Virus record (IMG/VR): IMGVR_UViG_648276650_000010
Coordinates: 1 to 19,602 of that record
DNA from: a virus
Taxonomy: Duplodnaviria; Heunggongvirae; Uroviricota; Caudoviricetes
Strand: one strand, 5' to 3'
DNA: 19,602 nucleotides
The notes under the pieces are model-generated. The model ran no database searches, had not been told where the DNA came from, and saw nothing but the letters and a program-made list of their open reading frames with translations. Shown one piece after another: positions 4,674-16,533 of this stretch; the stretch's first letter is position 1, and every line of letters begins with the position of its first letter. Made by a program: the position numbers and the translations under genes.

Positions 4674-4954
4674 TTTCCTCTTAGAACTGCTAGGTCGATA
4701 TCTAGCTTTGCTGTTCTTCCTTCTAAATTCTTCAAATCAGATTTGACCTCTCGAAATTCATCCTGTTGTCGTGTTATATCGCTTATAAGCGAAGCATCTT
4801 TTGCGTCATTAACGGCTATGCTTTTTTCGATGTCTGAGAAACGTTTCTCAAGGTCAATTCGTTTTTCATTGTTTGATTTAATTTCGGCATAAACCCAAGC
4901 CAAGAAACCTCCTAGAGCACCCAAGATGGAAATGATCAGTGCTATATCGACCAT
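4670..4954 (-). CDS. membrane-anchored coiled-coil protein, 94 aa
   Basis: ATG at 4954-4952 with two AAGGAG-type elements upstream. N-terminal hydrophobic helix (IALIISILGALGGFLAWVYA) followed by a charged heptad-like region. Function unknown; i-spanin-like or exclusion-like topology. Confidence 0.6.
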   Translation of the reverse strand: MVDIALIISILGALGGFLAWVYAEIKSNNEKRIDLEKRFSDIEKSIAVNDAKDASLISDITRQQDEFREVKSDLKNLEGRTAKLDIDLAVLRGK

Positions 4955-4999: not shown

Positions 5000-7900
5000 T
5001 TATTGTTGTTTACTGATAAAGTAAACTGCTCTTGCTGCGGTCGCATGATTCAAGTCAGCACCGTAACTCAAATCAACAGCTTGTCCCGCATAGATAATGC
5101 CTGTACCACCGTTTGAACCACTCATTGCACTGGTAACTGTTCTTACGATTTCTTGACCGTTCGACATATTAATCCATGCAGTTCCGTAGCCCCAAGCACC
5201 ACCGGAATAAGTTCTGCCTGAAATCGAAAGGTTTGGAATAGAAATTACTCTGTTCCAGTTAACAGCAGGAATATGAACTGTTGTCCACGGATCTATATGA
5301 CCCATTTTGATAACGTCACCTTCAATTCTGTCAGCGTATACAGTTCCTGTGAAATAACCTGAACCGCCTCTGATTTCACCTGCGAAATAACCAGAATCTG
5401 CTTGAATGTTACCTCTGATATTAACGTTTTGGAAAGAAGCCCAACCGTCTTTTCTGATTGTCCAACCTTGAGTACCACCGGAAGGGAACCAGTTATCAGA
5501 AGATATTTCATAAGCAATCTGTGCTGAACCGATCTGAGCATTACCAATTTTCGCAGTAGTAATCGCACCGTTTTCAATCTTCGCGTTGTTAATAGCACCG
5601 TTTTGAATCTTAGCGTTGTTAATAGAAGCATCTGCAATCTGTGCTGAACCGATAGAAGCATTACGAATCATTGCAGAATCCATATAAACTCTGTTATCAG
5701 CGACCATAAACGGAGCAACAGCACCCGCAGGAGTATTGTTATTCGTTATAGCGATTTTATCAGCGTTAAAAACAATACTAGACTGTTTTGAACCGTCAGG
5801 ATTCTTATTAGCCAGCATACTGATACCAGCAACAACACCGTCGGCATTAGTCTGAACTGCCCATTTGCTATTAATCGTTCCTGTTAAGTCGTCAACGCTT
5901 GCTTTTGATTCTTGACTAACTGTTGCAATAGCTGTGTTTGTTTCAGCTTTCAATTGATTAATTGAACTTGCGGTTGCTTGTCTATCATCAGCTTGAGTTT
6001 TTTCAACTTTCGTAATAGCCGAGTTAAGTTTTCCATCAAAGTTAGATTCTTGAATACTGATAGCCTGATTGATAGCGCCATTAGTTTCATTAGTAATCTG
6101 AGTATGAAGTTCGGTGTTTTTCGTCGTGATAGTCTGATTTAATTCAGTAGTAACTTTTTGCTCGGATGCTGTAACTTTCGTATCAGTGTATTTGTTAGCG
6201 AGGTCTAATGCTTCATCGATAGCACCATCAACACGTTTATCCAAATCAAGCAAATCGTTTAACTGTTCTTTCATATCGTCAGTCCACGGAATATCCCATT
6301 TCATATCGATAAACTTCGATTCTGACCAAGTAATCTGGTCTTGTCCGAATACGTCATACCAAGCTGAACGAACATAGAATTGACCATCTTCTAATGGAAA
6401 ATTATCTAAGAACGGACTTGAACTTGAATAAACGTGAACAATTTCATTAAAACTCTGGTCTTTCGCAATATGAACGATTGTGCCTTTGAAGTCAGGAACT
6501 TCAGGCTTATTATCGCGTGGGTCATTCCAAGAGCACATCAGCATTCCAGGACCATTCGAAGCTGTGAAACCTTGAATAGCAGGAGCTTGATTGTTCTTAA
6601 CAGTAATAACAGCAGGATCTGACTTCATACCAGCGTGACCGTATGCAGTAACAGAAACTTTCAATTCACGACTCAGACCATTACCCAAGTTCATATTAAA
6701 GTCATATACAAAACCTAAGTCTTTAGTCTTGTAAATTACAGGACGCTGACCTTCAATTTTGATTTCGTAATATTGAAAAACTTCACCGAATGTCTGTAAC
6801 GTGTCGTCAACATAGAATTTCTGTGCGCTCTGGTCGTCCCAGGCGAATTCAAATTGAGTCTTGTTAGTGGTGTATTGATTTTCAACTGCGTTCACTAGGT
6901 GCAGTCCTGTAACGACTGGTAAGTTATACATAACCTCAGGGTTAACGTTATTGACATAAACCCAATCTGAACGATACACAACACCAGAAGCACAAACACG
7001 AATATCAAATTTCTGATTAGGGTCAAGACTCATAATCAAGAAATAATCGCCTGATGTGAAACCTGCTTGAATCCAAGAGTTCTTACCAGCAAGACTATAC
7101 TGAATATAATAACCTGCGCGATTATAATCAGGTTCAGACGTCCATTGAACTTTCAGAGTTCTTCCTAAAGCTGTTTCAGCAACTGCTTTAACTGTCAGAT
7201 TCTTAGGAGCAATCAGAACAGATTTATTAGGAATGTTGCTTCCTGTGTTATCAGGGTCTTTCGCGTAGTCAAGATTGGTATAAACTTCTTCGATATATTC
7301 AGAAGCAGTAATAGTAACGATACCAGCAGCACCTTTATTCATCGAACGATCGATATTAGTAATACGCCATAATGAATTCACAAGTTCCAGTTCAGAGAAA
7401 TTAACTCTGATAACATCCCAGACCTGTGCGGTATAAGCATCAGCAGTTGAAAAACTAATAACTTGCTTTAACAGAGATTTGTTACGTTCGATTGAAGCAA
7501 TTTTATCCAACTGAGATTTTGATTTCACGAATCTGTAACTGATATCTTTAGCGATAATACGTTTATCTTTCGCGATTGTTCCATCATTTGTTACGTCAGA
7601 CGGATAACGCAGAACTTGGTCAGAATAGTCAATCGACGGATCTTGATATTTCACGTTCAGAGTATTGTAATAATTCTCAGAACCGCCATCGTTTAAGCTA
7701 ACAGTACCAGCGTTAATATTATCTTCGTTGAAGTCATATTGAACAACATCAGGTCCATCGATTCTGCATGTTACTTTACCGAAAGTCTCTGTGATAATAC
7801 CGTTAAATGCACCTGCAAGCTGAGTTAAGTTTTCTTTGAATGAACCGTTCGGGTCAGTTGCACCATCAGAAAATAAACTGTTCAGTTTTGCATATCGAGC

Positions 7901-8689
7901 AGCTTCTTTAAAACTATCAAGGTCGATTTTATCAATCTGAATTCCAAGACCGTATCTATCATTTGTTAGATAATCAACAATCTGACTCGGACCGTTGTTC
8001 GAGGAAACGCGTTCTCCTGTGTTCAGATCTGTAATCAAACGTCCTCTAACGTCAACAGATACTTGACTGTTAGGTTGCAGGATATCAGCTTGGTTTTGAA
8101 GGTCTGAGTTACGTTTGCGCATAACAACACAACAAGCAGCGATGTTATTACCAGTAGCAGAATCAGGCCAGCCAGCATCTGAATTTCCTAGATATTTCTG
8201 AGCAAGAGTAAAAACGTGACCGTATGGCTTACCAGTTGAGAATTCAACTTCAACATATTGCTGATATTCAGCAGCGATTGAACCTTTCGGAAGAACACCG
8301 TCTTTATAAACGCCATCAAGTAAGATTTTCTGATTATCCATATAAAGGTTTTTGAAGCTATCAACTTCACCTTCACAGATTGCAAAGATCTGAACCAAAT
8401 ATGTCGTATCAACGCCAACAGCTTTCCAAACGTTAATCGTACCTGTACGCTGTTCACCATAGATAATAGGAATAACACTTGATGGATCTGACGTTGTTCC
8501 TAATGTCGTTGCTGTGTCTGTGCTGTTAAATCGGGGAACGTTCTGCGCCATCTGAGTTGACATCAAAGCAGAAACAGCAGCAACAGCGACACCAATACCA
8601 ATTGCCAAAGCAAGAGCAGCACCCGCAGCGTAAGCAGCAGCAGCCGCGGAAGCACCTGCGATAATTGCACCAATAGCTACAATAGCCAT
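5000..8689 (-). CDS. lambda J-like tail tip / host specificity protein, 1229 aa, with hydrophobic N-terminal extension
   Basis: ATG at 8689-8687 overlaps the upstream stop (TAATG). The region PIIYGEQRTGTINVWK...YLVQIFAICEGEV matches the conserved N-terminal motif of J-type tip proteins; the C-terminal region (FMVADNRVYMDSAMIRNASIG..., NIRGNIQADSGYFAGEIRGG...) resembles the lambda J C-terminal receptor-binding region as I recall it. Confidence 0.75.
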   Translation of the reverse strand: MAIVAIGAIIAGASAAAAAYAAGAALALAIGIGVAVAAVSALMSTQMAQNVPRFNSTDTATTLGTTSDPSSVIPIIYGEQRTGTINVWKAVGVDTTYLVQIFAICEGEVDSFKNLYMDNQKILLDGVYKDGVLPKGSIAAEYQQYVEVEFSTGKPYGHVFTLAQKYLGNSDAGWPDSATGNNIAACCVVMRKRNSDLQNQADILQPNSQVSVDVRGRLITDLNTGERVSSNNGPSQIVDYLTNDRYGLGIQIDKIDLDSFKEAARYAKLNSLFSDGATDPNGSFKENLTQLAGAFNGIITETFGKVTCRIDGPDVVQYDFNEDNINAGTVSLNDGGSENYYNTLNVKYQDPSIDYSDQVLRYPSDVTNDGTIAKDKRIIAKDISYRFVKSKSQLDKIASIERNKSLLKQVISFSTADAYTAQVWDVIRVNFSELELVNSLWRITNIDRSMNKGAAGIVTITASEYIEEVYTNLDYAKDPDNTGSNIPNKSVLIAPKNLTVKAVAETALGRTLKVQWTSEPDYNRAGYYIQYSLAGKNSWIQAGFTSGDYFLIMSLDPNQKFDIRVCASGVVYRSDWVYVNNVNPEVMYNLPVVTGLHLVNAVENQYTTNKTQFEFAWDDQSAQKFYVDDTLQTFGEVFQYYEIKIEGQRPVIYKTKDLGFVYDFNMNLGNGLSRELKVSVTAYGHAGMKSDPAVITVKNNQAPAIQGFTASNGPGMLMCSWNDPRDNKPEVPDFKGTIVHIAKDQSFNEIVHVYSSSSPFLDNFPLEDGQFYVRSAWYDVFGQDQITWSESKFIDMKWDIPWTDDMKEQLNDLLDLDKRVDGAIDEALDLANKYTDTKVTASEQKVTTELNQTITTKNTELHTQITNETNGAINQAISIQESNFDGKLNSAITKVEKTQADDRQATASSINQLKAETNTAIATVSQESKASVDDLTGTINSKWAVQTNADGVVAGISMLANKNPDGSKQSSIVFNADKIAITNNNTPAGAVAPFMVADNRVYMDSAMIRNASIGSAQIADASINNAKIQNGAINNAKIENGAITTAKIGNAQIGSAQIAYEISSDNWFPSGGTQGWTIRKDGWASFQNVNIRGNIQADSGYFAGEIRGGSGYFTGTVYADRIEGDVIKMGHIDPWTTVHIPAVNWNRVISIPNLSISGRTYSGGAWGYGTAWINMSNGQEIVRTVTSAMSGSNGGTGIIYAGQAVDLSYGADLNHATAARAVYFISKQQ
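5514..5653 (-). repeat. intragenic tandem and direct repeats in the J-like gene
   Basis: Exact 20-nt direct repeat gcaatctgtgctgaaccgat at 5514-5533 and 5634-5653 (120 nt apart, in frame), with 30-nt-period near-repeats at 5561-5620 between them. Encodes a periodic motif (IGSAQIA ... NNAKIQNGAINNAKIENGAITTAKIGNAQ). Confidence 0.8.
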
Positions 8690-9700: not shown

Positions 9701-12700
9701 TTATTTAGCTTCAAGTTCTTTAACGCGAGCACTTAATTCCTTGATAGCATTAACCAGCAACGCGTTTACAGCAGCAGAGTTAACACCAAGAATTTCGTCA
9801 GGTCCGAAAGAACTAACAGCTTCTGGTAATACTTCTTTCAGTTCTTGAGCAATAATACCTGCTTCACGAACTTCGAATGAATATTCAGTTTTGACTAAAT
9901 CAGATTTCTTATCGTATACGTAACCAGTAAGTTTCTCGACTTTATCAACTGCGTTTTCAATTTCTTCAAAGTTCGATTTCAGACGTTTATCAGAAGTGCT
10001 AACCCATTGGATCGCATTTGCTGTTCCATTACCGAGGAATAGATAGTCTGCACCACCAATGTGAAGTGCAGCCTCGGGAGCAGAACTACCCGGATTATAA
10101 ATGTCCATCGCAGCACCGTATTCTGTGCCCCAATGAACATGTTTCCAGATATTAATACATTTATCACGAGTCTGAGCTTCAACAATCATTCCCGCAGGAC
10201 GATCACGCCACGCTGACCACTGCGGCCAACCGTCAACGACACCTTGAATCATCGCATTGCTTGCCCCGGTTCTAACGTTTCCAACATAAACACCGCGAGA
10301 CTCATTATGGGTGTTAATCGTAATTGACCGATCAATTGTCAAACCAGCTGTGTTAAAGGTTGCGATTTGAATACCATTAGTAAAAATGCTTAAGTTTCCG
10401 TCCGTAACTTGTCGAATACCTGTATCGTTATCACCAAACGCGATTGAGTTTCCACCTAGTACGTTGTCCGTGTTAATACCAAAACTTGTTAAACGATTTG
10501 TTTCAACAGAAGGAGTATTAATTTTTCCAGGAACAGCAAAACGACCATCGATATCAAATTCATAATTAGCCATTTTACCGAACGTCGATTCTTCTTTCGT
10601 CCCAACACGAAGAATTCCTTTGCCCCATGAATTAGCTGGTCCTCTAATAGTTCCTAATTCAACAACAGTAGAGAATCCGTGTCCTACGGAAACAGAGTTC
10701 ATCGAATATCCGGGATAATAATCACTTTCACCAGCAACTGCTCCGAAGTTAATCTGCATAGGAGCATTTTGTCTCCATTGATTAGCGTAAGCATGATCAT
10801 TGGTTGCTGCCCATCTTGCACCATCAATTTGAATTGTATTATGCTGAATATCCATCGCGGTATTAGTACCAGTCTGAACCGTCACGGATCCGTTAGTTCT
10901 AAGAGTAACACCAGATGACGTAGAGAAATCATTTCTCATATTCTGAGACCAGACAATATCGAGATTCTCACTTGTCTTGCCAAGAATCCAGGTATTATTG
11001 CGACCGTCCATATTGCCAGACATATAACTTGCCTGATTCGACGCAGGAATATTCAACTGAATAGCATTAGATTCGCCGTTGACAGAAACACCACTTGCAA
11101 GATTCAATCGACCATTGGTGTTTAATGAACCCATCCAATATTCAGGAGTATCACCATGAAACCAACATATAGAGTTATCCAGCCTATCGTCAGGATGATT
11201 AGCCATTGCCAACTCATGATAAATGGATCCAGCACCAACGGCTCTAACTTTTCTTAAATGATTTGATTGTTGCTCAGGAGTGTTCCAGTCGGGTAAGCTT
11301 TCCGAGTCATACCATCCGTAAGGCTTATTATTATAAATCGTTTTATAGAAACTTGCAGGGCCAGCAACACCAAGACCTTCTTTAGTATCAATATAAGTTC
11401 TGCCTGAACCTCTCAGATAATGATTATATTTTCCACCATTAACTAATCCGAAATAAGTCGTGGCGTCACCAATGTTATTACCGTCGGTTGTCGTATCGAT
11501 ATTAATTAATGAATAACCTTCAGGAGCCATCAGATTCGAATCACCATCATCACTTCTGAAACGGAAATGAGTTTTTCTATTAAAGTAGTTTTCAGATCCT
11601 GCAATAGAAGCTGTTACAACGTTATTTGAATAGAAGTTTAACCATCCGTCTTCTCTCCATTTAAAACCAGTGTCGGAATCACCAATCGCGATAGAGTTTA
11701 AACCCAGTGAATTTCCAACGGCAAAGTTGCTTGCAACGGACATTAAAGGAGTTGTTACTGCATCAGTGATTCTAGCTTGACCTGAAATATCAATTGACAT
11801 TCCTCTGCCTGTTTTTCCCCAAGTCATGGTCATTAGATCTAATGCGTCGGTTCCTTCGTTAGCATCACGACGAAATAACAGTCGATCATCCGTATCCGTT
11901 GCGTATGCAATTTGATGAATAGTCTTTGAAGTTCTGCCGTGGTTTTCAATACTCAGAACATCACCGTTATTACCAGCAGGTGTAACTTTCAAAGTTCCTG
12001 CGTATACATTACCAGCAGCATGAACAGAAGGAACAGTTAAGTCGCCAGTCATCGTGTCGCCAGCTTTATTAACTTTGGTGTCAATCATGTCTTTCAGAGT
12101 CTGATTATCAACAGTCAAACGGTCATTAACTGCTTTAATCTTTTCGTCAGCATCAGCTTTATTCGCATCAACTTTCGTATTAATAGCCGTGTCGTTCTGG
12201 TCAACTTTTGAATTCAGATTATCAACGCGAGTGTTAATAGCAGCGTCGTTAGCATCAACTTTCTGTTCGAGTTTCGTCAGGTCAGCACTTGAACCTGTTT
12301 GAACTTTGCTGATTTCAGAATCAACGTAATCTTTACGCGTAGCGCTATCAGGAGCAACAGGAGCAGCAGGCAAAGATAACTGACCATTACCGTTAAGCAC
12401 GAAGTCAGAACTCTCTCCTGTACCTTTTCCTTTCGCTACCGTAACACGAAGTTCACCTTTAGAGTCTGTCTGAGCAGGAGAACTAATACGTGCTTTTGCT
12501 TTGTCGTGTTCATCAGCAAAAACAATATCGCTTTTATCAAGATTTTTTAAAGTCAGATTAGAATCGGATTCAATATCACTTGCTTTAATTTTTCCAGTAA
12601 AGGTCTGACCGCCTTCAACAACAGCATCAGCACCATTACCGATGTTAATAACAGCGTCACCGAATTTAGTAAAAATCTTTTTATCGGCTAAGTTAATAGC

Positions 12701-12784
12701 GATTTCACCATCAAGCATGTTTTTCGCTTCTGGCTTTCTTCCGGCGACGTCTGTTCTATAATGTTTAACTTTATTATTTGCCAT
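9701..12784 (-). CDS. tail fiber protein, 1027 aa, with C-terminal intramolecular chaperone (peptidase S74-type) domain
   Basis: ATG at 12784-12782. N-terminal fibrous repeats (VDxNDxAINTxVD) and a DTMTGDLTV motif typical of phage fibers. C-terminal WVSTS-DKRLKSNFEEIE...YVYDKK...EAGIIAQELKEVLPEAV...NAIKELSARVKELE matches the auto-cleaving chaperone domain seen in endosialidase-type tailspikes and L-shaped fibers. Confidence 0.8.
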   Translation of the reverse strand: MANNKVKHYRTDVAGRKPEAKNMLDGEIAINLADKKIFTKFGDAVINIGNGADAVVEGGQTFTGKIKASDIESDSNLTLKNLDKSDIVFADEHDKAKARISSPAQTDSKGELRVTVAKGKGTGESSDFVLNGNGQLSLPAAPVAPDSATRKDYVDSEISKVQTGSSADLTKLEQKVDANDAAINTRVDNLNSKVDQNDTAINTKVDANKADADEKIKAVNDRLTVDNQTLKDMIDTKVNKAGDTMTGDLTVPSVHAAGNVYAGTLKVTPAGNNGDVLSIENHGRTSKTIHQIAYATDTDDRLLFRRDANEGTDALDLMTMTWGKTGRGMSIDISGQARITDAVTTPLMSVASNFAVGNSLGLNSIAIGDSDTGFKWREDGWLNFYSNNVVTASIAGSENYFNRKTHFRFRSDDGDSNLMAPEGYSLINIDTTTDGNNIGDATTYFGLVNGGKYNHYLRGSGRTYIDTKEGLGVAGPASFYKTIYNNKPYGWYDSESLPDWNTPEQQSNHLRKVRAVGAGSIYHELAMANHPDDRLDNSICWFHGDTPEYWMGSLNTNGRLNLASGVSVNGESNAIQLNIPASNQASYMSGNMDGRNNTWILGKTSENLDIVWSQNMRNDFSTSSGVTLRTNGSVTVQTGTNTAMDIQHNTIQIDGARWAATNDHAYANQWRQNAPMQINFGAVAGESDYYPGYSMNSVSVGHGFSTVVELGTIRGPANSWGKGILRVGTKEESTFGKMANYEFDIDGRFAVPGKINTPSVETNRLTSFGINTDNVLGGNSIAFGDNDTGIRQVTDGNLSIFTNGIQIATFNTAGLTIDRSITINTHNESRGVYVGNVRTGASNAMIQGVVDGWPQWSAWRDRPAGMIVEAQTRDKCINIWKHVHWGTEYGAAMDIYNPGSSAPEAALHIGGADYLFLGNGTANAIQWVSTSDKRLKSNFEEIENAVDKVEKLTGYVYDKKSDLVKTEYSFEVREAGIIAQELKEVLPEAVSSFGPDEILGVNSAAVNALLVNAIKELSARVKELEAK

Positions 12785-13829: not shown

Positions 13830-14228
13830 TCACATTAAGTATTCGAAAGTTAAAATTATTTGTGCGCTAACATGACCATTTGATGCTTCACTATCATAAT
13901 CAGTGAAGCTCGAACTTGGATAAATCTTATCGATTTTAAATGGGATAAGTTTTTCATGATTAGCTTTAATAGAAATTAAGTCGTAAACGGCTTTGTGAAC
14001 GCCTGTTTCGCTTTTCTCTGAGAAAATATCAATCGTAATACTAAGAACACTTGCAAGTTTCGATTGCAAACCGATTCGCGTATATTCTTCTGTCATTCCT
14101 GGAATCATTACTTGAACAGGTTCTTTAACACCAGTTGTGAAAGCGTTTTTGACGTATTTCAGATTAAGTTCTTTAACGATTATTTCTTCCAGAGCGCGTT
14201 TAATTCCTAAACGTGGCAGATTAGTCAT
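13830..14228 (-). CDS. tail terminator protein, gpU-like, 133 aa
   Basis: I place the start at the internal ATG at 14228-14226, which overlaps the upstream stop by 8 nt; the ORF-track start at 14306 would overlap the upstream gene by 86 nt. C-terminus DYDSEASNGHVSAQIILTFEYLM resembles the lambda gpU C-terminus (DY..DDAG..SADLTYVITYEM) as recalled. Confidence 0.6.
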   Translation of the reverse strand: MTNLPRLGIKRALEEIIVKELNLKYVKNAFTTGVKEPVQVMIPGMTEEYTRIGLQSKLASVLSITIDIFSEKSETGVHKAVYDLISIKANHEKLIPFKIDKIYPSSSFTDYDSEASNGHVSAQIILTFEYLM

Positions 14229-14517
14229 AGAATGATGTCTCCTGTTCGCCTTTAAATGCCAGATAACAATTAGCAAGTCCTGAACCATCATTAACAAGAT
14301 ACGCAATGGTATACAGAATCTCGTTTAATAGAACTTCATCTTCTTGCTTAACTTTATTGATATCAGCGGTTATATAGATTGTCTCGCTTACTTGTCCGTT
14401 ATCGTTGTTAATCTCAATTTCAACAATACCGAGTTCATCAGAATCGTTAATTTTGATTTTCTGTCCGAAACGAGTTAAGAAAGACTGTTTTTGTTTTTCT
14501 GAATATGGAAAAATCAT
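14221..14517 (-). CDS. head-tail joining (neck) protein, 98 aa
   Basis: ATG at 14517-14515 with an AAGGAGA SD; first gene after the capsid terminator. Small and acidic, in the position of a head completion/connector protein. No specific family assignable. Confidence 0.5.
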   Translation of the reverse strand: MIFPYSEKQKQSFLTRFGQKIKINDSDELGIVEIEINNDNGQVSETIYITADINKVKQEDEVLLNEILYTIAYLVNDGSGLANCYLAFKGEQETSFYD

Positions 14518-14552
14518 GTTGTCTCCTTTTTATTATATTTAGTCCAGAAACG

Positions 14553-14576
14553 AAAAAAGGACTCCCGAAGGAGTCC
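14553..14576 (-). terminator. strong intrinsic terminator after the major capsid gene
   Basis: On the minus strand: GGACUCC-UUCG-GGAGUCC (perfect 7-bp stem, UUCG tetraloop; stem 14559-14576) followed by UUUUUU (14553-14558 on plus). Lies about 50 nt downstream of the capsid stop. Confidence 0.85.
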
Positions 14577-14597
14577 TCTGATTATTCAGCAGTTTCA

Positions 14598-14627
14598 GCT
14601 TTCGCTTTCGCTTTTGCTTTTGCTTTT
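14598..14627. repeat. five tandem hexamers (GCTTTC x2, GCTTTT x3 on plus; AAAAGC/GAAAGC on the mRNA) immediately 3' of the capsid stop
   Basis: Read directly from the sequence. Starts 1 nt after the stop codon (14629-14631) and ends before the terminator hairpin. Confidence 0.8.
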
Positions 14628-14628
14628 C

Positions 14629-16533
14629 TTAGGCTTGTTTTTCGTGCAGGAACAGACGATCATCAGCACAAACTTTCCAATCGATATCAGCCCAAACGCG
14701 AGGAACGATAGCGCCTTTGTTACGGTAAGTTGTGTCGTCTAGGTCAAGAGCAAGACCTTCCCACTCAGCTACGGTTACAGCAGAGAAGTCACCAGAGATA
14801 ACCTGACCTTCTTTAACAAGACCGGAACCGATAACATCATGTCCGCCCAGTTTGTTCAGGTCGTCGATGATATAACCAGCAACACCAGCGTCACGCAGAG
14901 TGGTTTTCAAATCACCTTCAAGAGCAGCAGCCATCAAATATTTGAACTTGTCCATTGCTACGCCGTCGCCTTTAGCTTTAGCAGCTTCAACAACGAATTC
15001 TTTGTAGGTCATTCCCATCTGTTTTGCTACTAACTGAGCAACGATAGACTGAGGAGCTTTTGCGTCGGTAATAGAACCGAACATCAGACCTTCCAGTTTA
15101 GCGCGTGAGAAATTCACGATATGGTCAGAAATGAACGCACCCAGATTAGGCAGAGTCAACAGAGCTTGACGAGAAATCGGGTTACCACCAGTAAATGTCT
15201 TAGGCATAAACTGAATGTTTTCGAATTTGCTTTCGCCTTCTGGAGATTCACCGTTTTCATCAACGAAACCGAATGCATCAACACTTGATTTTGTCTGCTT
15301 AGGAACAGAAATCGGAGTAGTCAGACCAGTCAGGAAGTTAACTCCCAGCTTATCAGCAACAGTGTCTTTCAACAGCATTTCAACGAATGAATCATAACGC
15401 TGAACAGTTTCTTGTACTGCGGAAACAGTTGATACAGTGTTAATAGCGCGTTTGCCTTGCAGAGCACTAACTGGCATATAGATACCTTGAGAAACGTTAG
15501 CACCGCGCATCAGACGCTTACGGGACATTTCTTGAGTATATTCAGCAGCAGCACCGCGAACAGCTTTACCATTCATCATAGAGCGAACAGCATCGCCAAG
15601 GTCGAATTTATTTTCCAGAGTTTGTTTAGTATCTTTAGTCATGTTGCGAATCACCGTTGCAGATTTATTAGGTTTAATAGAGCGTTTGAATTGACGTGCG
15701 GTCATGCCTTTAGCGATAGCGCTTGCAACGTCTTTCTGTGCTACTTTGTAGCGTTGTGCGATTTCAAGAATTTCTTCCGCTTCTTCTTCGCGTTCTTCTT
15801 CTGTCAGTTCGTCACCAGCAGGAACAGCAGCAGGAGCGTCATCAGTTTTTTCAACAGCAGAATCACCAGCGTTTTCATTTTCAACGACTACTTCTTCCAG
15901 AATTTCTTCACGCTTTGCACGATCTTCATCGGACAGCATTTCAATTTCATCGATAGTCATTTCTGCCAGTTCATCTTTAGTCATTTCATCAATACGTTTC
16001 ATTCGAGTACCTTTGTTAAGTTTGTTTGTTGTATCTGTATTTAGTAGTCTTCCCAAACCGACTTTATCGTCAGCAGGAACAGTGACGAAAGAAATTTCAT
16101 ATGGTGCCCATTTCGTAACAATAAGATTGTCGCCTTCTAAGTGATATTCATTAATGTCATATCCGAAAGAGATTTTACTAATTGTTCCTTCTTGAACTTT
16201 TGCACCGATTTCTTTAGCTAATTCACCGTGTTGACTGAATTGGACTTTTGCTCGTCCTATTTTGTCTTCATCGATTCGAACAGAATCAGGAATAACGATT
16301 CCCAAGTGTTTATCAAAATCATGGTTAAACAGCAAAGCAGCACCGTTATTAATTCGGGTCAAGTCAGCGTTATGTGAGCCGTCATGAACGAGAATTTCAT
16401 TAACAGTAATGTTTTGACCGTATTCATCCTGAATCTGTCTTTCAACAGGAGTTTCAGAACTGAACGCAATTTCAAAAACACCATCAACAGAATCAATACC
16501 CTGAACTGTGTAATCGCGCTTAAGTTTTAGCAT
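14629..16533 (-). CDS. fused prohead protease / scaffold-like linker / HK97-fold major capsid protein, 634 aa
   Basis: ATG at 16533-16531 with a GAGGA SD. Residues ~1-177 carry the prohead protease signature (ISFGYDINEYHLEGDNLIVTKWAPYEISFVTVPAD, as in HK97-type U35/S78 proteases). Residues ~178-270 are acidic and helical (DELTEEEREEEAEEILE). The C-terminal ~360 aa look like an HK97-type capsid protein. An in-frame internal ATG with SD lies at 16002-16000 (M178). Confidence 0.8.
   Translation of the reverse strand: MLKLKRDYTVQGIDSVDGVFEIAFSSETPVERQIQDEYGQNITVNEILVHDGSHNADLTRINNGAALLFNHDFDKHLGIVIPDSVRIDEDKIGRAKVQFSQHGELAKEIGAKVQEGTISKISFGYDINEYHLEGDNLIVTKWAPYEISFVTVPADDKVGLGRLLNTDTTNKLNKGTRMKRIDEMTKDELAEMTIDEIEMLSDEDRAKREEILEEVVVENENAGDSAVEKTDDAPAAVPAGDELTEEEREEEAEEILEIAQRYKVAQKDVASAIAKGMTARQFKRSIKPNKSATVIRNMTKDTKQTLENKFDLGDAVRSMMNGKAVRGAAAEYTQEMSRKRLMRGANVSQGIYMPVSALQGKRAINTVSTVSAVQETVQRYDSFVEMLLKDTVADKLGVNFLTGLTTPISVPKQTKSSVDAFGFVDENGESPEGESKFENIQFMPKTFTGGNPISRQALLTLPNLGAFISDHIVNFSRAKLEGLMFGSITDAKAPQSIVAQLVAKQMGMTYKEFVVEAAKAKGDGVAMDKFKYLMAAALEGDLKTTLRDAGVAGYIIDDLNKLGGHDVIGSGLVKEGQVISGDFSAVTVAEWEGLALDLDDTTYRNKGAIVPRVWADIDWKVCADDRLFLHEKQA

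Follow-up and report, generated by a model that had tools for sequence, protein, structure and literature searches.

A hexanucleotide array behind a prophage capsid gene as the possible coding core of a basic capsid tail reached by -1 frameshifting

Results

The capsid gene and its 3' end

The window, by which we mean the whole stretch of 19,602 nucleotides that was analysed, belongs to an Enterobacteriaceae prophage, and according to the ORF list every gene in it lies on the minus strand. The capsid gene product is a single fusion of a prohead protease (S78), an acidic scaffold-like linker and an HK97-fold major capsid protein, with Pfam matches to Peptidase_S78 in its N-terminal part (1.4e-10) and to Phage_capsid in its C-terminal part (1.3e-6), and the gene is preceded by a lambda-family portal gene. 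The solved structure nearest to this protein is the capsid protein of roseophage R4C (8GTA, E 2e-17), the head of which has 415 capsid subunits according to the R4C structure paper; the location of the C-terminus of the capsid protein is not mentioned there. The features at and after the 3' end of the capsid gene are listed below.

14629..16533, minus strand: capsid gene, 634 aa, ending in DRLFLHEKQA (ORF list and translation)
14638..14641, minus strand: candidate slip site for a -1 shift, A_AAA, made up of the Lys codon AAA and the A that ends the GAA before it; part of the A5 run 14642..14638 and three codons ahead of the stop (read from the sequence)
14635..14637, minus strand: codon 633 (CAA, Gln), a hotspot of variation that reads CAA, AAA or AAC among prophages with capsid genes otherwise distinguished by 0-4 of 1905 nt
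14629..14631, minus strand: 0-frame stop TAA, in the context UAAG (sequence, ORF list)
14598..14627, minus strand: hexamer array, AAAAGC x3 followed by GAAAGC x2 (sequence, Tandem Repeats Finder)
14582..14638, minus strand: extension ORF in the -1 frame, ACA AGC CTA AGA (AAA GCN)x5 GAA ACT GCT GAA TAA, translated as TSLRKAKAKAKAKAETAE up to its stop
14546..14579, minus strand: intrinsic terminator of the capsid transcript, GGACTCC-UUCG-GGAGTCC and a T run (T6) (terminator scan, fold)
14221..14517, minus strand: next gene, 98 aa, with no family match, which sets the end of the intergenic space; GGAG at 14526..14523

The capsid gene ends GAA AAA CAA GCC TAA. The initial annotation had placed the first three of these triplets directly before the stop; they are present but lie one codon further upstream, and it is GCC that adjoins the stop. 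The stem of the terminator (14579..14556, with a UUCG loop) is preceded by TCAG, with TGAAACTGCTGAATAA between the hexamer array and TCAG, and the same stem is common to the relatives of this prophage and to T4-like soc terminators.

The hexamer array and the -1 reading frame

Five tandem hexamers that begin one nucleotide past the capsid stop and end before the terminator had been described from the sequence at the outset, and the description was borne out. The array follows a single G (14628) after the stop, Tandem Repeats Finder reports it at 14598-14627 with a period of 6, 5.0 copies and 95% matches, and an array of five 6-nt units with at most two mismatches appeared in 0 of 500 dinucleotide-preserving shuffles of the window. 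Also as stated in the initial annotation, the -1 frame through the array reads as a Lys-Ala repeat, (EK)TSLRKAKAKAKAKAETAE. This frame is open from 9 codons upstream of the capsid stop down to 14582, overlapping the candidate slip site, and ends 4 nt short of the terminator hairpin. The extension comprises 18 codons with a pI of ~10 and would add 1685 Da (~1.7 kDa) relative to the QA end.

As there is no T in the repeat, none of the three frames can meet a stop codon within it, and thus the openness of the array itself has no evidential weight. The units of the array differ only in an A or a G, which is the third base of the -1 Ala codon (GCA/GCG), a variation that leaves the peptide of the -1 frame unchanged but alters those of both other frames.

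Occurrence of the prophage family

The loci compared came from IMG/VR, metagenomes, Logan/ENA/NCBI contigs and E. coli genomes. The capsid protein of the window is recorded in many Citrobacter and E. coli contigs, and the capsid 3' end in the chromosome of E. coli 2021CK-01361 is identical to that of the window. In E. coli PSS-15 the relative is a prophage of ~34 kb situated between ybiT and ldtB and adjoining a recombinase-family gene. Members of the family were present in 6 of 5426 complete E. coli genomes, and more distant relatives were found in Klebsiella, Enterobacter and Serratia. A scan of genome contigs gave only two distant matches and a scan of metagenome contigs four loci, all of types already known, while the DNA pattern ACGGGAGCTTAAYTRAY retrieved from viral contigs two known loci and two unrelated chance matches. 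Short protein queries, namely the C-terminal 185 aa and a hypothetical fused tail of 54 aa, returned nothing useful, apparently owing to a word-index limit. No frameshift is annotated for the capsid gene in three RefSeq E. coli records, and a limited literature search found no description of this tail arrangement.

Among deposited phages only Escherichia phage DCP80 (L001, PQ671644.1) is close, at 64% amino-acid identity. Its 141-kb record is filed under Straboviridae/Gaprivervirus, yet this head module is present in it, the HK97-type protease-capsid fusion being directly preceded by a portal gene.

Capsid tails across the family

Most relatives at 50-80% capsid identity have a short in-frame tail rich in Ala, Lys, Glu and Pro after a conserved DRLFLYEK, for example GTPAEVKAALKASA, GTPAEAKAAKQ, GTPAEAPAEAKAGK, GEAKAK, KEAAPAKAK or AEAAGSKAAK. 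These in-frame tails vary by tandem duplication as well (PAEA once in L008 and twice in L009), and in the lineages that have them the -1 frame is closed right around the stop. Four lineages stop 2-4 codons past the conserved Lys codon (A_AAR), with the following ends before the stop codon and tails in the -1 frame.

Lineage A (the group of the window): ends EKQA, EKKA or EKNA
Lineage B (L005, L029, L027, L031/L117, L115): ends EKKTGA, EKTGA or VKTGA; -1 tails like DGSLTDTGAQAAPVRKPRALKVTK
Lineage F (DCP80, L030, L122, L123): ends EKTA, EKTV or EKSE; -1 tail of L122 and L123 ending in AAPVKKARARRVKSTD
Lineage G (L012, 40% identity): ends LVKQG; -1 tail ARVIPTGREEVSVKSGRKPKTDN

The arrangement of an Ala codon before the stop (GCN TAA) recurs in lineage B and in DCP80 of lineage F. 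In every early-stop lineage the -1 frame runs open from a point upstream of the Lys codon and closes only 3-9 nt short of the terminator hairpin, and the tails that it encodes, of which NGSLINTGEQASPAKVKKPRALKVK and one ending in DAEALDAAPVKKARARRVKSTD are further examples, are similar, mostly basic, of low complexity and 18-39 residues long. According to shuffles the chance of such openness is 0.04-0.39 per lineage, which multiplies to ~1e-3 over the four lineages, a product that has to be read in the light of these lineages being few and not fully independent. As for the tail ORF of DCP80, a 1-nt difference in the length of an A-run compared to L122 and L123 makes it end in KKSKSASG instead of continuing as KKARARRVK. 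A chimeric assembly of the DCP80 record, or an error in the homopolymer, might be the cause.

The tails can also be compared codon by codon. The -1 codons CAA GCT GCT CCT of L005 align in the same codon phase with the in-frame AAA GCT GCT CTG of L006, and AAA GCA AAA GCG of the window aligns, again in phase, with AAG GCA AGA GCG of L122 in lineage F (K-A-[KR]-A). Between lineages B and F a block of 10 codons in the -1 frame, P-V-[KR]-K-x-R-A-x-[KR]-V, has been kept, Arg being AGA in one lineage and CGC in the other, and the Pro and Ala codons differing synonymously. The pooled pN/pS of this block is 0.47 and the amino-acid identity 55% in the -1 frame, compared to pN/pS of 1.4 and 1.7 and identities of 20% and 14% in the other two frames; since the block was picked by eye on the -1 peptide, this contrast is supporting evidence and not proof. 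Within lineage B the pN/pS of the -1 frame is 0.4-1.8 and the variable sites are spread 10/10/11 over the codon positions with no third-position excess, probably because the region doubles as an RNA hairpin, and much of the conservation within B may be at the RNA level. The sequence ACGGGAGCTTAA around the B stop codon is invariant, as is expected under overlapping constraints. Taken on these alignments, the hexamers are very probably Lys-Ala codons of a -1 tail ORF homologous to the tails of the relatives, and the array reads as an expansion of a pre-existing basic-Ala motif.

Other routes of translation were considered and rejected. The product of reading through the 0-frame stop would cross the terminator, and this frame is closed almost at once in lineage F and after ~5 codons in L027. 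The +1 frame (KNKPKKSKSKSESES up to its stop) is open in the window only because the repeat lacks T, and it closes early, after ~6 codons, in lineage B; neither of these frames has a tail common to the lineages. An independent small ORF is not a general solution, as neither the window nor B offers it a start codon (ATG, GTG or TTG) or an SD sequence, self-initiation of the tail ORF being conceivable only in DCP80 (internal ATG) and L012 (GTGA overlap). On the plus strand, an ORF at 14505..14711 (68 aa, AFAFAFAFAF through the repeat) runs across the terminator and into the start codon of the next gene, which lies on the opposite strand, and is almost certainly a spurious artefact.

The comparison of lineages bears also on a non-coding role of the tract. 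E. coli Hfq binds (ARN)n by its distal face together with a 3' U tail, and the window has six consecutive ARN triplets (AAA AGC x3) and an intrinsic terminator with T6, a layout of the Hfq type by which a 3'UTR element could alter mRNA stability or yield a 3'UTR-derived small RNA. However, the tract does not occur in lineages B, C, D, E, F and G, where coding-like tails or hairpins are found; its copy number is unconstrained, there is no significant fold, and Rfam gave no match other than a sub-threshold chance one. An element affecting stability or binding protein, which the initial annotation offered as an alternative, thus found no comparative support, as the repeat is missing from all other lineages, and we give this explanation hardly any credence.

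Slip sites and hairpins

The A_AAR motif is found at the homologous Lys codon in every early-stop relative. It is extended to a perfect A_AAA_AAG in L005 of lineage B and to A_AAA_AAA or A_AAA_AAC in the sister alleles of the window, and elsewhere it is A_AAG or A_AAA. In lineage B a two-tier hairpin begins a few nt past the motif. Pairing was retained in 98.7% of cells, against at most 51% in slid controls, and five pairs had changes on both sides, a covariation that was reached by 0 of 500 shuffles. The z-scores of folding were -1.6 to -4.0 in B and -3.3 in F, and only -0.5 to -1.7 in the in-frame lineages. In phage A2, too, a hairpin lies just downstream of the shift site. It is likely that lineages B and F make a minor, longer form of the capsid protein by -1 frameshifting, as far as the slip sites, folds and tail ORFs allow a function to be read from them.

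The window copy is different in this respect. Its slip site is the tetramer A_AAA only (GAA AAA CAA), and there is no X_XXY_YYZ heptamer because CAA follows AAA. No SD-like sequence was found upstream of the slip site, and in lineage A no significant fold was found between the slip site or stop and the terminator (z-scores -0.9, in the window, and -1.5). Tetramers with no stimulator gave 0.147% frameshifting compared to a background of 0.112% in E. coli reporters, where, of the tetramers that responded, A_AAA was the weakest even when a pseudoknot was present (PMC4066793). At the published tetramer rate (about 0.15%) less than one subunit in a head of 415 would be extended, and at rates of 1-10% the number would be ~4-40. 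The main text of Sharma et al. 2014 does not describe its prophage clusters as capsid genes.

That some capsid subunits might be extended by frameshifting near the stop was suggested already in the initial annotation. At the family level this idea gained support from the -1 tail ORF in four diverged lineages, the phase-matched in-frame tails, the slip site and hairpin in two lineages and the covariation in one. For the window allele, with A_AAA only and no stimulatory structure, it did not hold in the same way: efficient frameshifting is not supported in this copy, and we expect the long form to be rare, possibly only a trace.

The same lack of a heptamer and of a stimulatory structure, with predicted frameshifting near background, is what would be seen if the tail had become vestigial in the window. 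According to this main rival explanation the tract is a relic of an ancestral segment that coded for a tail, its translation having ceased as the hairpin disappeared from this lineage and the heptamer, later on, from this allele. It would now be a neutral simple-sequence spacer separating the stop from the terminator and drifting by replication slippage. The repeat varies freely from 2 to 6 copies in near-clonal prophages, its frames are trivially open for want of T, and loss of the heptamer is clearly tolerated, as the CAA allele is the commonest (128 collection blocks compared to 38 for the AAA allele). Yet the -1 ORF is intact and stops just where a coding sequence is expected to, at 4 nt from the terminator, its unit-to-unit variation is synonymous in that frame only, and the large difference that separates it from the tails of F and B preserves the frame. 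In addition, two of the three alleles have kept a true heptamer, and the variation hotspot at codon 633 looks more like tuning than neglect. We consider a vestigial tail possible but doubtful, and next turn to the alleles with translation of the tail in the -1 frame still as the preferred reading.

Variation at codon 633 and in copy number

Prophages with capsid genes differing at 0-4 of 1905 nt have 2, 3, 5 or 6 copies of the hexamer, which confirms by copy-number comparison that the tract is slippage-prone and length-variable, as had been proposed from the single sequence. Codon 633 and copy number combine in four haplotypes.

AAC and 2 units: L124
AAA and 3 units: L011, L112-L114, L127
CAA and 5 units: window, L004, L023, L116, L125
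CAA and 6 units: L126

Codon 633 takes 2 of the ~4 substitutions in the whole 1905-nt gene, for which the chance at a pre-specified 7-nt site is estimated at roughly 1e-4. Each state of the codon gives a different slip site, AAA creating A_AAA_AAA and a run of A8, AAC creating the IS1-type A_AAA_AAC and CAA leaving A_AAA alone. In the A8 run of the AAA allele transcriptional slippage could also take place. Since the unit is 6 nt long, changes in copy number never switch the frame and only alter the length of the tail. One of the CAA loci, L004 (IMGVR_UViG_3300045988_134013), is otherwise identical but has at ~4700-4725 a 1-nt insertion in the capsid gene (GATGTTTATCGG) that truncates the ORF, being either an assembly error or a pseudogene.

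These observations could be brought together by regarding the slip codon and the array as one fast-evolving tuning module, where changes in the A-run would set the slippage of the ribosome or RNA polymerase and the copy number (2-6) would set the length of the polybasic tail on some of the subunits, so that the haplotypes represent a co-adjusted dose and length. We find this extension of the frameshift reading unlikely, but if it is true, near-clonal prophages would give rise to particles differing in their surface or DNA-contact properties.

The variation could also act at the level of DNA, as a contingency switch where rare indels of one base in the A-run bring the tail into frame in part of the population and copy number sets its length, and the outcome would be heritable capsid variants and not translational mixtures. 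One added A would indeed bring EKKSLRKAKAK into frame, as read from the sequence. The A8 run in the sister alleles, the one-base indel of DCP80 in another A-run within the tail ORF, and the polymorphic repeat number together with the codon 633 hotspot would fit such a switch. On the other hand, the A5 run of the window is poorly mutable and, unlike in classical phase-variable repeats, changes in hexamer copy number keep the frame. No relative with an in-frame A-type tail was found, the single search aimed at such tails being uninformative. Thus we regard switching by indels as very unlikely, and return below to the preferred reading of a ribosome that slips at the Lys codon.

Discussion

Our reading of the locus is that the array codes for the (Lys-Ala)n core of a basic C-terminal tail, TSLRKAKAKAKAKAETAE, which is reached by a -1 slip. 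As a whole we hold this to be probable, if only by a modest degree of confidence. Capsid proteins of this prophage family would normally end in a tail rich in Ala and Lys, and in the early-stop lineages, including the window, the tail would be reachable only when the ribosome slips one base backward on A_AAR at the Lys codon or, alternatively in the A8 alleles, when RNA polymerase adds one A. The majority of the subunits would then end in EKQA and a minority would have the tail, as with 10A and 10B of T7, and the array would grow and shrink by replication slippage, one Lys-Ala pair per step. We infer the frameshifting itself, its frequency and the role of the tail from sequence comparison.

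Extension of a capsid protein by frameshifting is established in phages T7, T3, A2, A118 and A500 (PMC3185693; PMC5009743). The layout proposed here is like that of gene 10 of T7 and T3 (10A/10B), where ribosomes that shift to -1 a few codons ahead of the capsid stop produce a minor subunit with a C-terminal extension beside the major short form and a terminator follows the extension ORF (PMC3185693; PMC5009743). In contrast to our A_AAR motif and low-complexity extensions of 18-39 residues, T7 has motifs of the G_GUU_UUC type and an extension of 52 residues in ~10% of the subunits, and the protease-scaffold-capsid fusion bears no sequence relationship to T7 gp10. Closer in the type of head are gp5A/gp5B of Lactobacillus phage A2 and cps of Listeria phages A118 and A500, which are temperate phages with an HK97-type head module, whose major head gene yields a second capsid component through a -1 shift at its 3' end (PMC5009743). 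However, their extensions are larger, that of A2 being Ig-like (PMC5009743), compared to the short basic tail here. In the present family the frameshift would be lineage-specific, since the same tail is in frame in many relatives.

The slip sites can be compared to the cassettes of dnaX and insertion sequences, which consist of A_AAA_AAG and a stem-loop. Locus L005 has A_AAA_AAG in the correct phase with the covarying hairpin within a few nt, and one sister allele of the window has A_AAA_AAC, a motif that works in IS1 with no known stimulator. The likeness is incomplete, as there is no upstream SD-like element, the main stem lies ~12 nt after the heptamer with only a 4-bp outer stem nearer, and the window allele lacks heptamer and hairpin alike. 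There is resemblance to simple-sequence contingency loci too, in the combination of a short tandem repeat and a homopolymer run with copy-number and point polymorphism among near-identical genomes, but the unit here is 6 nt and copy number leaves the frame and the on/off state unchanged.

If the frameshift is real, a prophage family of Enterobacteriaceae, in E. coli, Citrobacter and the hosts of its more distant relatives, makes two capsid isoforms from one gene and adds a member with a short, low-complexity tail to the class of T7, A2 and A118. It would also offer a natural series of one tail in three states, in frame, reached via a heptamer and hairpin, or reached via a decayed site, and this could be useful in studying how recoding signals are gained and lost. 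Such a tail might be exposed on the outer surface, as in T7 10B, or might contact the DNA. Annotators should note that the 60-120 nt that follow these capsid genes and pass for 'intergenic' probably code for protein. If, on the other hand, the tail is vestigial, the tract is merely a hypervariable typing marker for these prophages.

Some further observations concern the surroundings of the array and exchange with other phages. The segment 14548..14594 on the minus strand, which runs from the last four codons of the -1 ORF (ACT GCT GAA TAA) through the spacer of 4 nt to the hairpin and T run of the terminator, is ~90-92% identical to the 3' end and terminator of soc, the gene for the small outer capsid protein in T4-like phages, and this match is present in 146 phage records. 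The reading frame of soc (ACT GGT GAA TAA) is in the same phase as the -1 frame of the window. The match is partly a feature of the prophage family, since the relatives have the same stem with a GAAA loop. A 1027-aa ORF at 9701..12784 on the minus strand matches the distal subunit family of the long tail fiber of T-even phages (PHROG 1699, 1.4e-114), and may be taken as a second sign of genetic exchange between the prophage and T-even phages, beside the soc-end match. In L114 (1..473 of the locus) and in the relatives P0004 and P0005 (residues 1 to ~170) the N-terminal protease segment is divergent, and immediately upstream of the capsid gene of L114 lies a gene with a faint match to NUMOD3 (homing-endonuclease-like), which points to mosaicism at the portal-capsid junction. 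Elsewhere in the window a second tandem repeat, with a unit of 30 nt and 2.2-2.7 copies, is found at 5545..5640, within the minus-strand gene 5000..8689 that encodes a central tail fiber (J-like) protein of 1229 aa.
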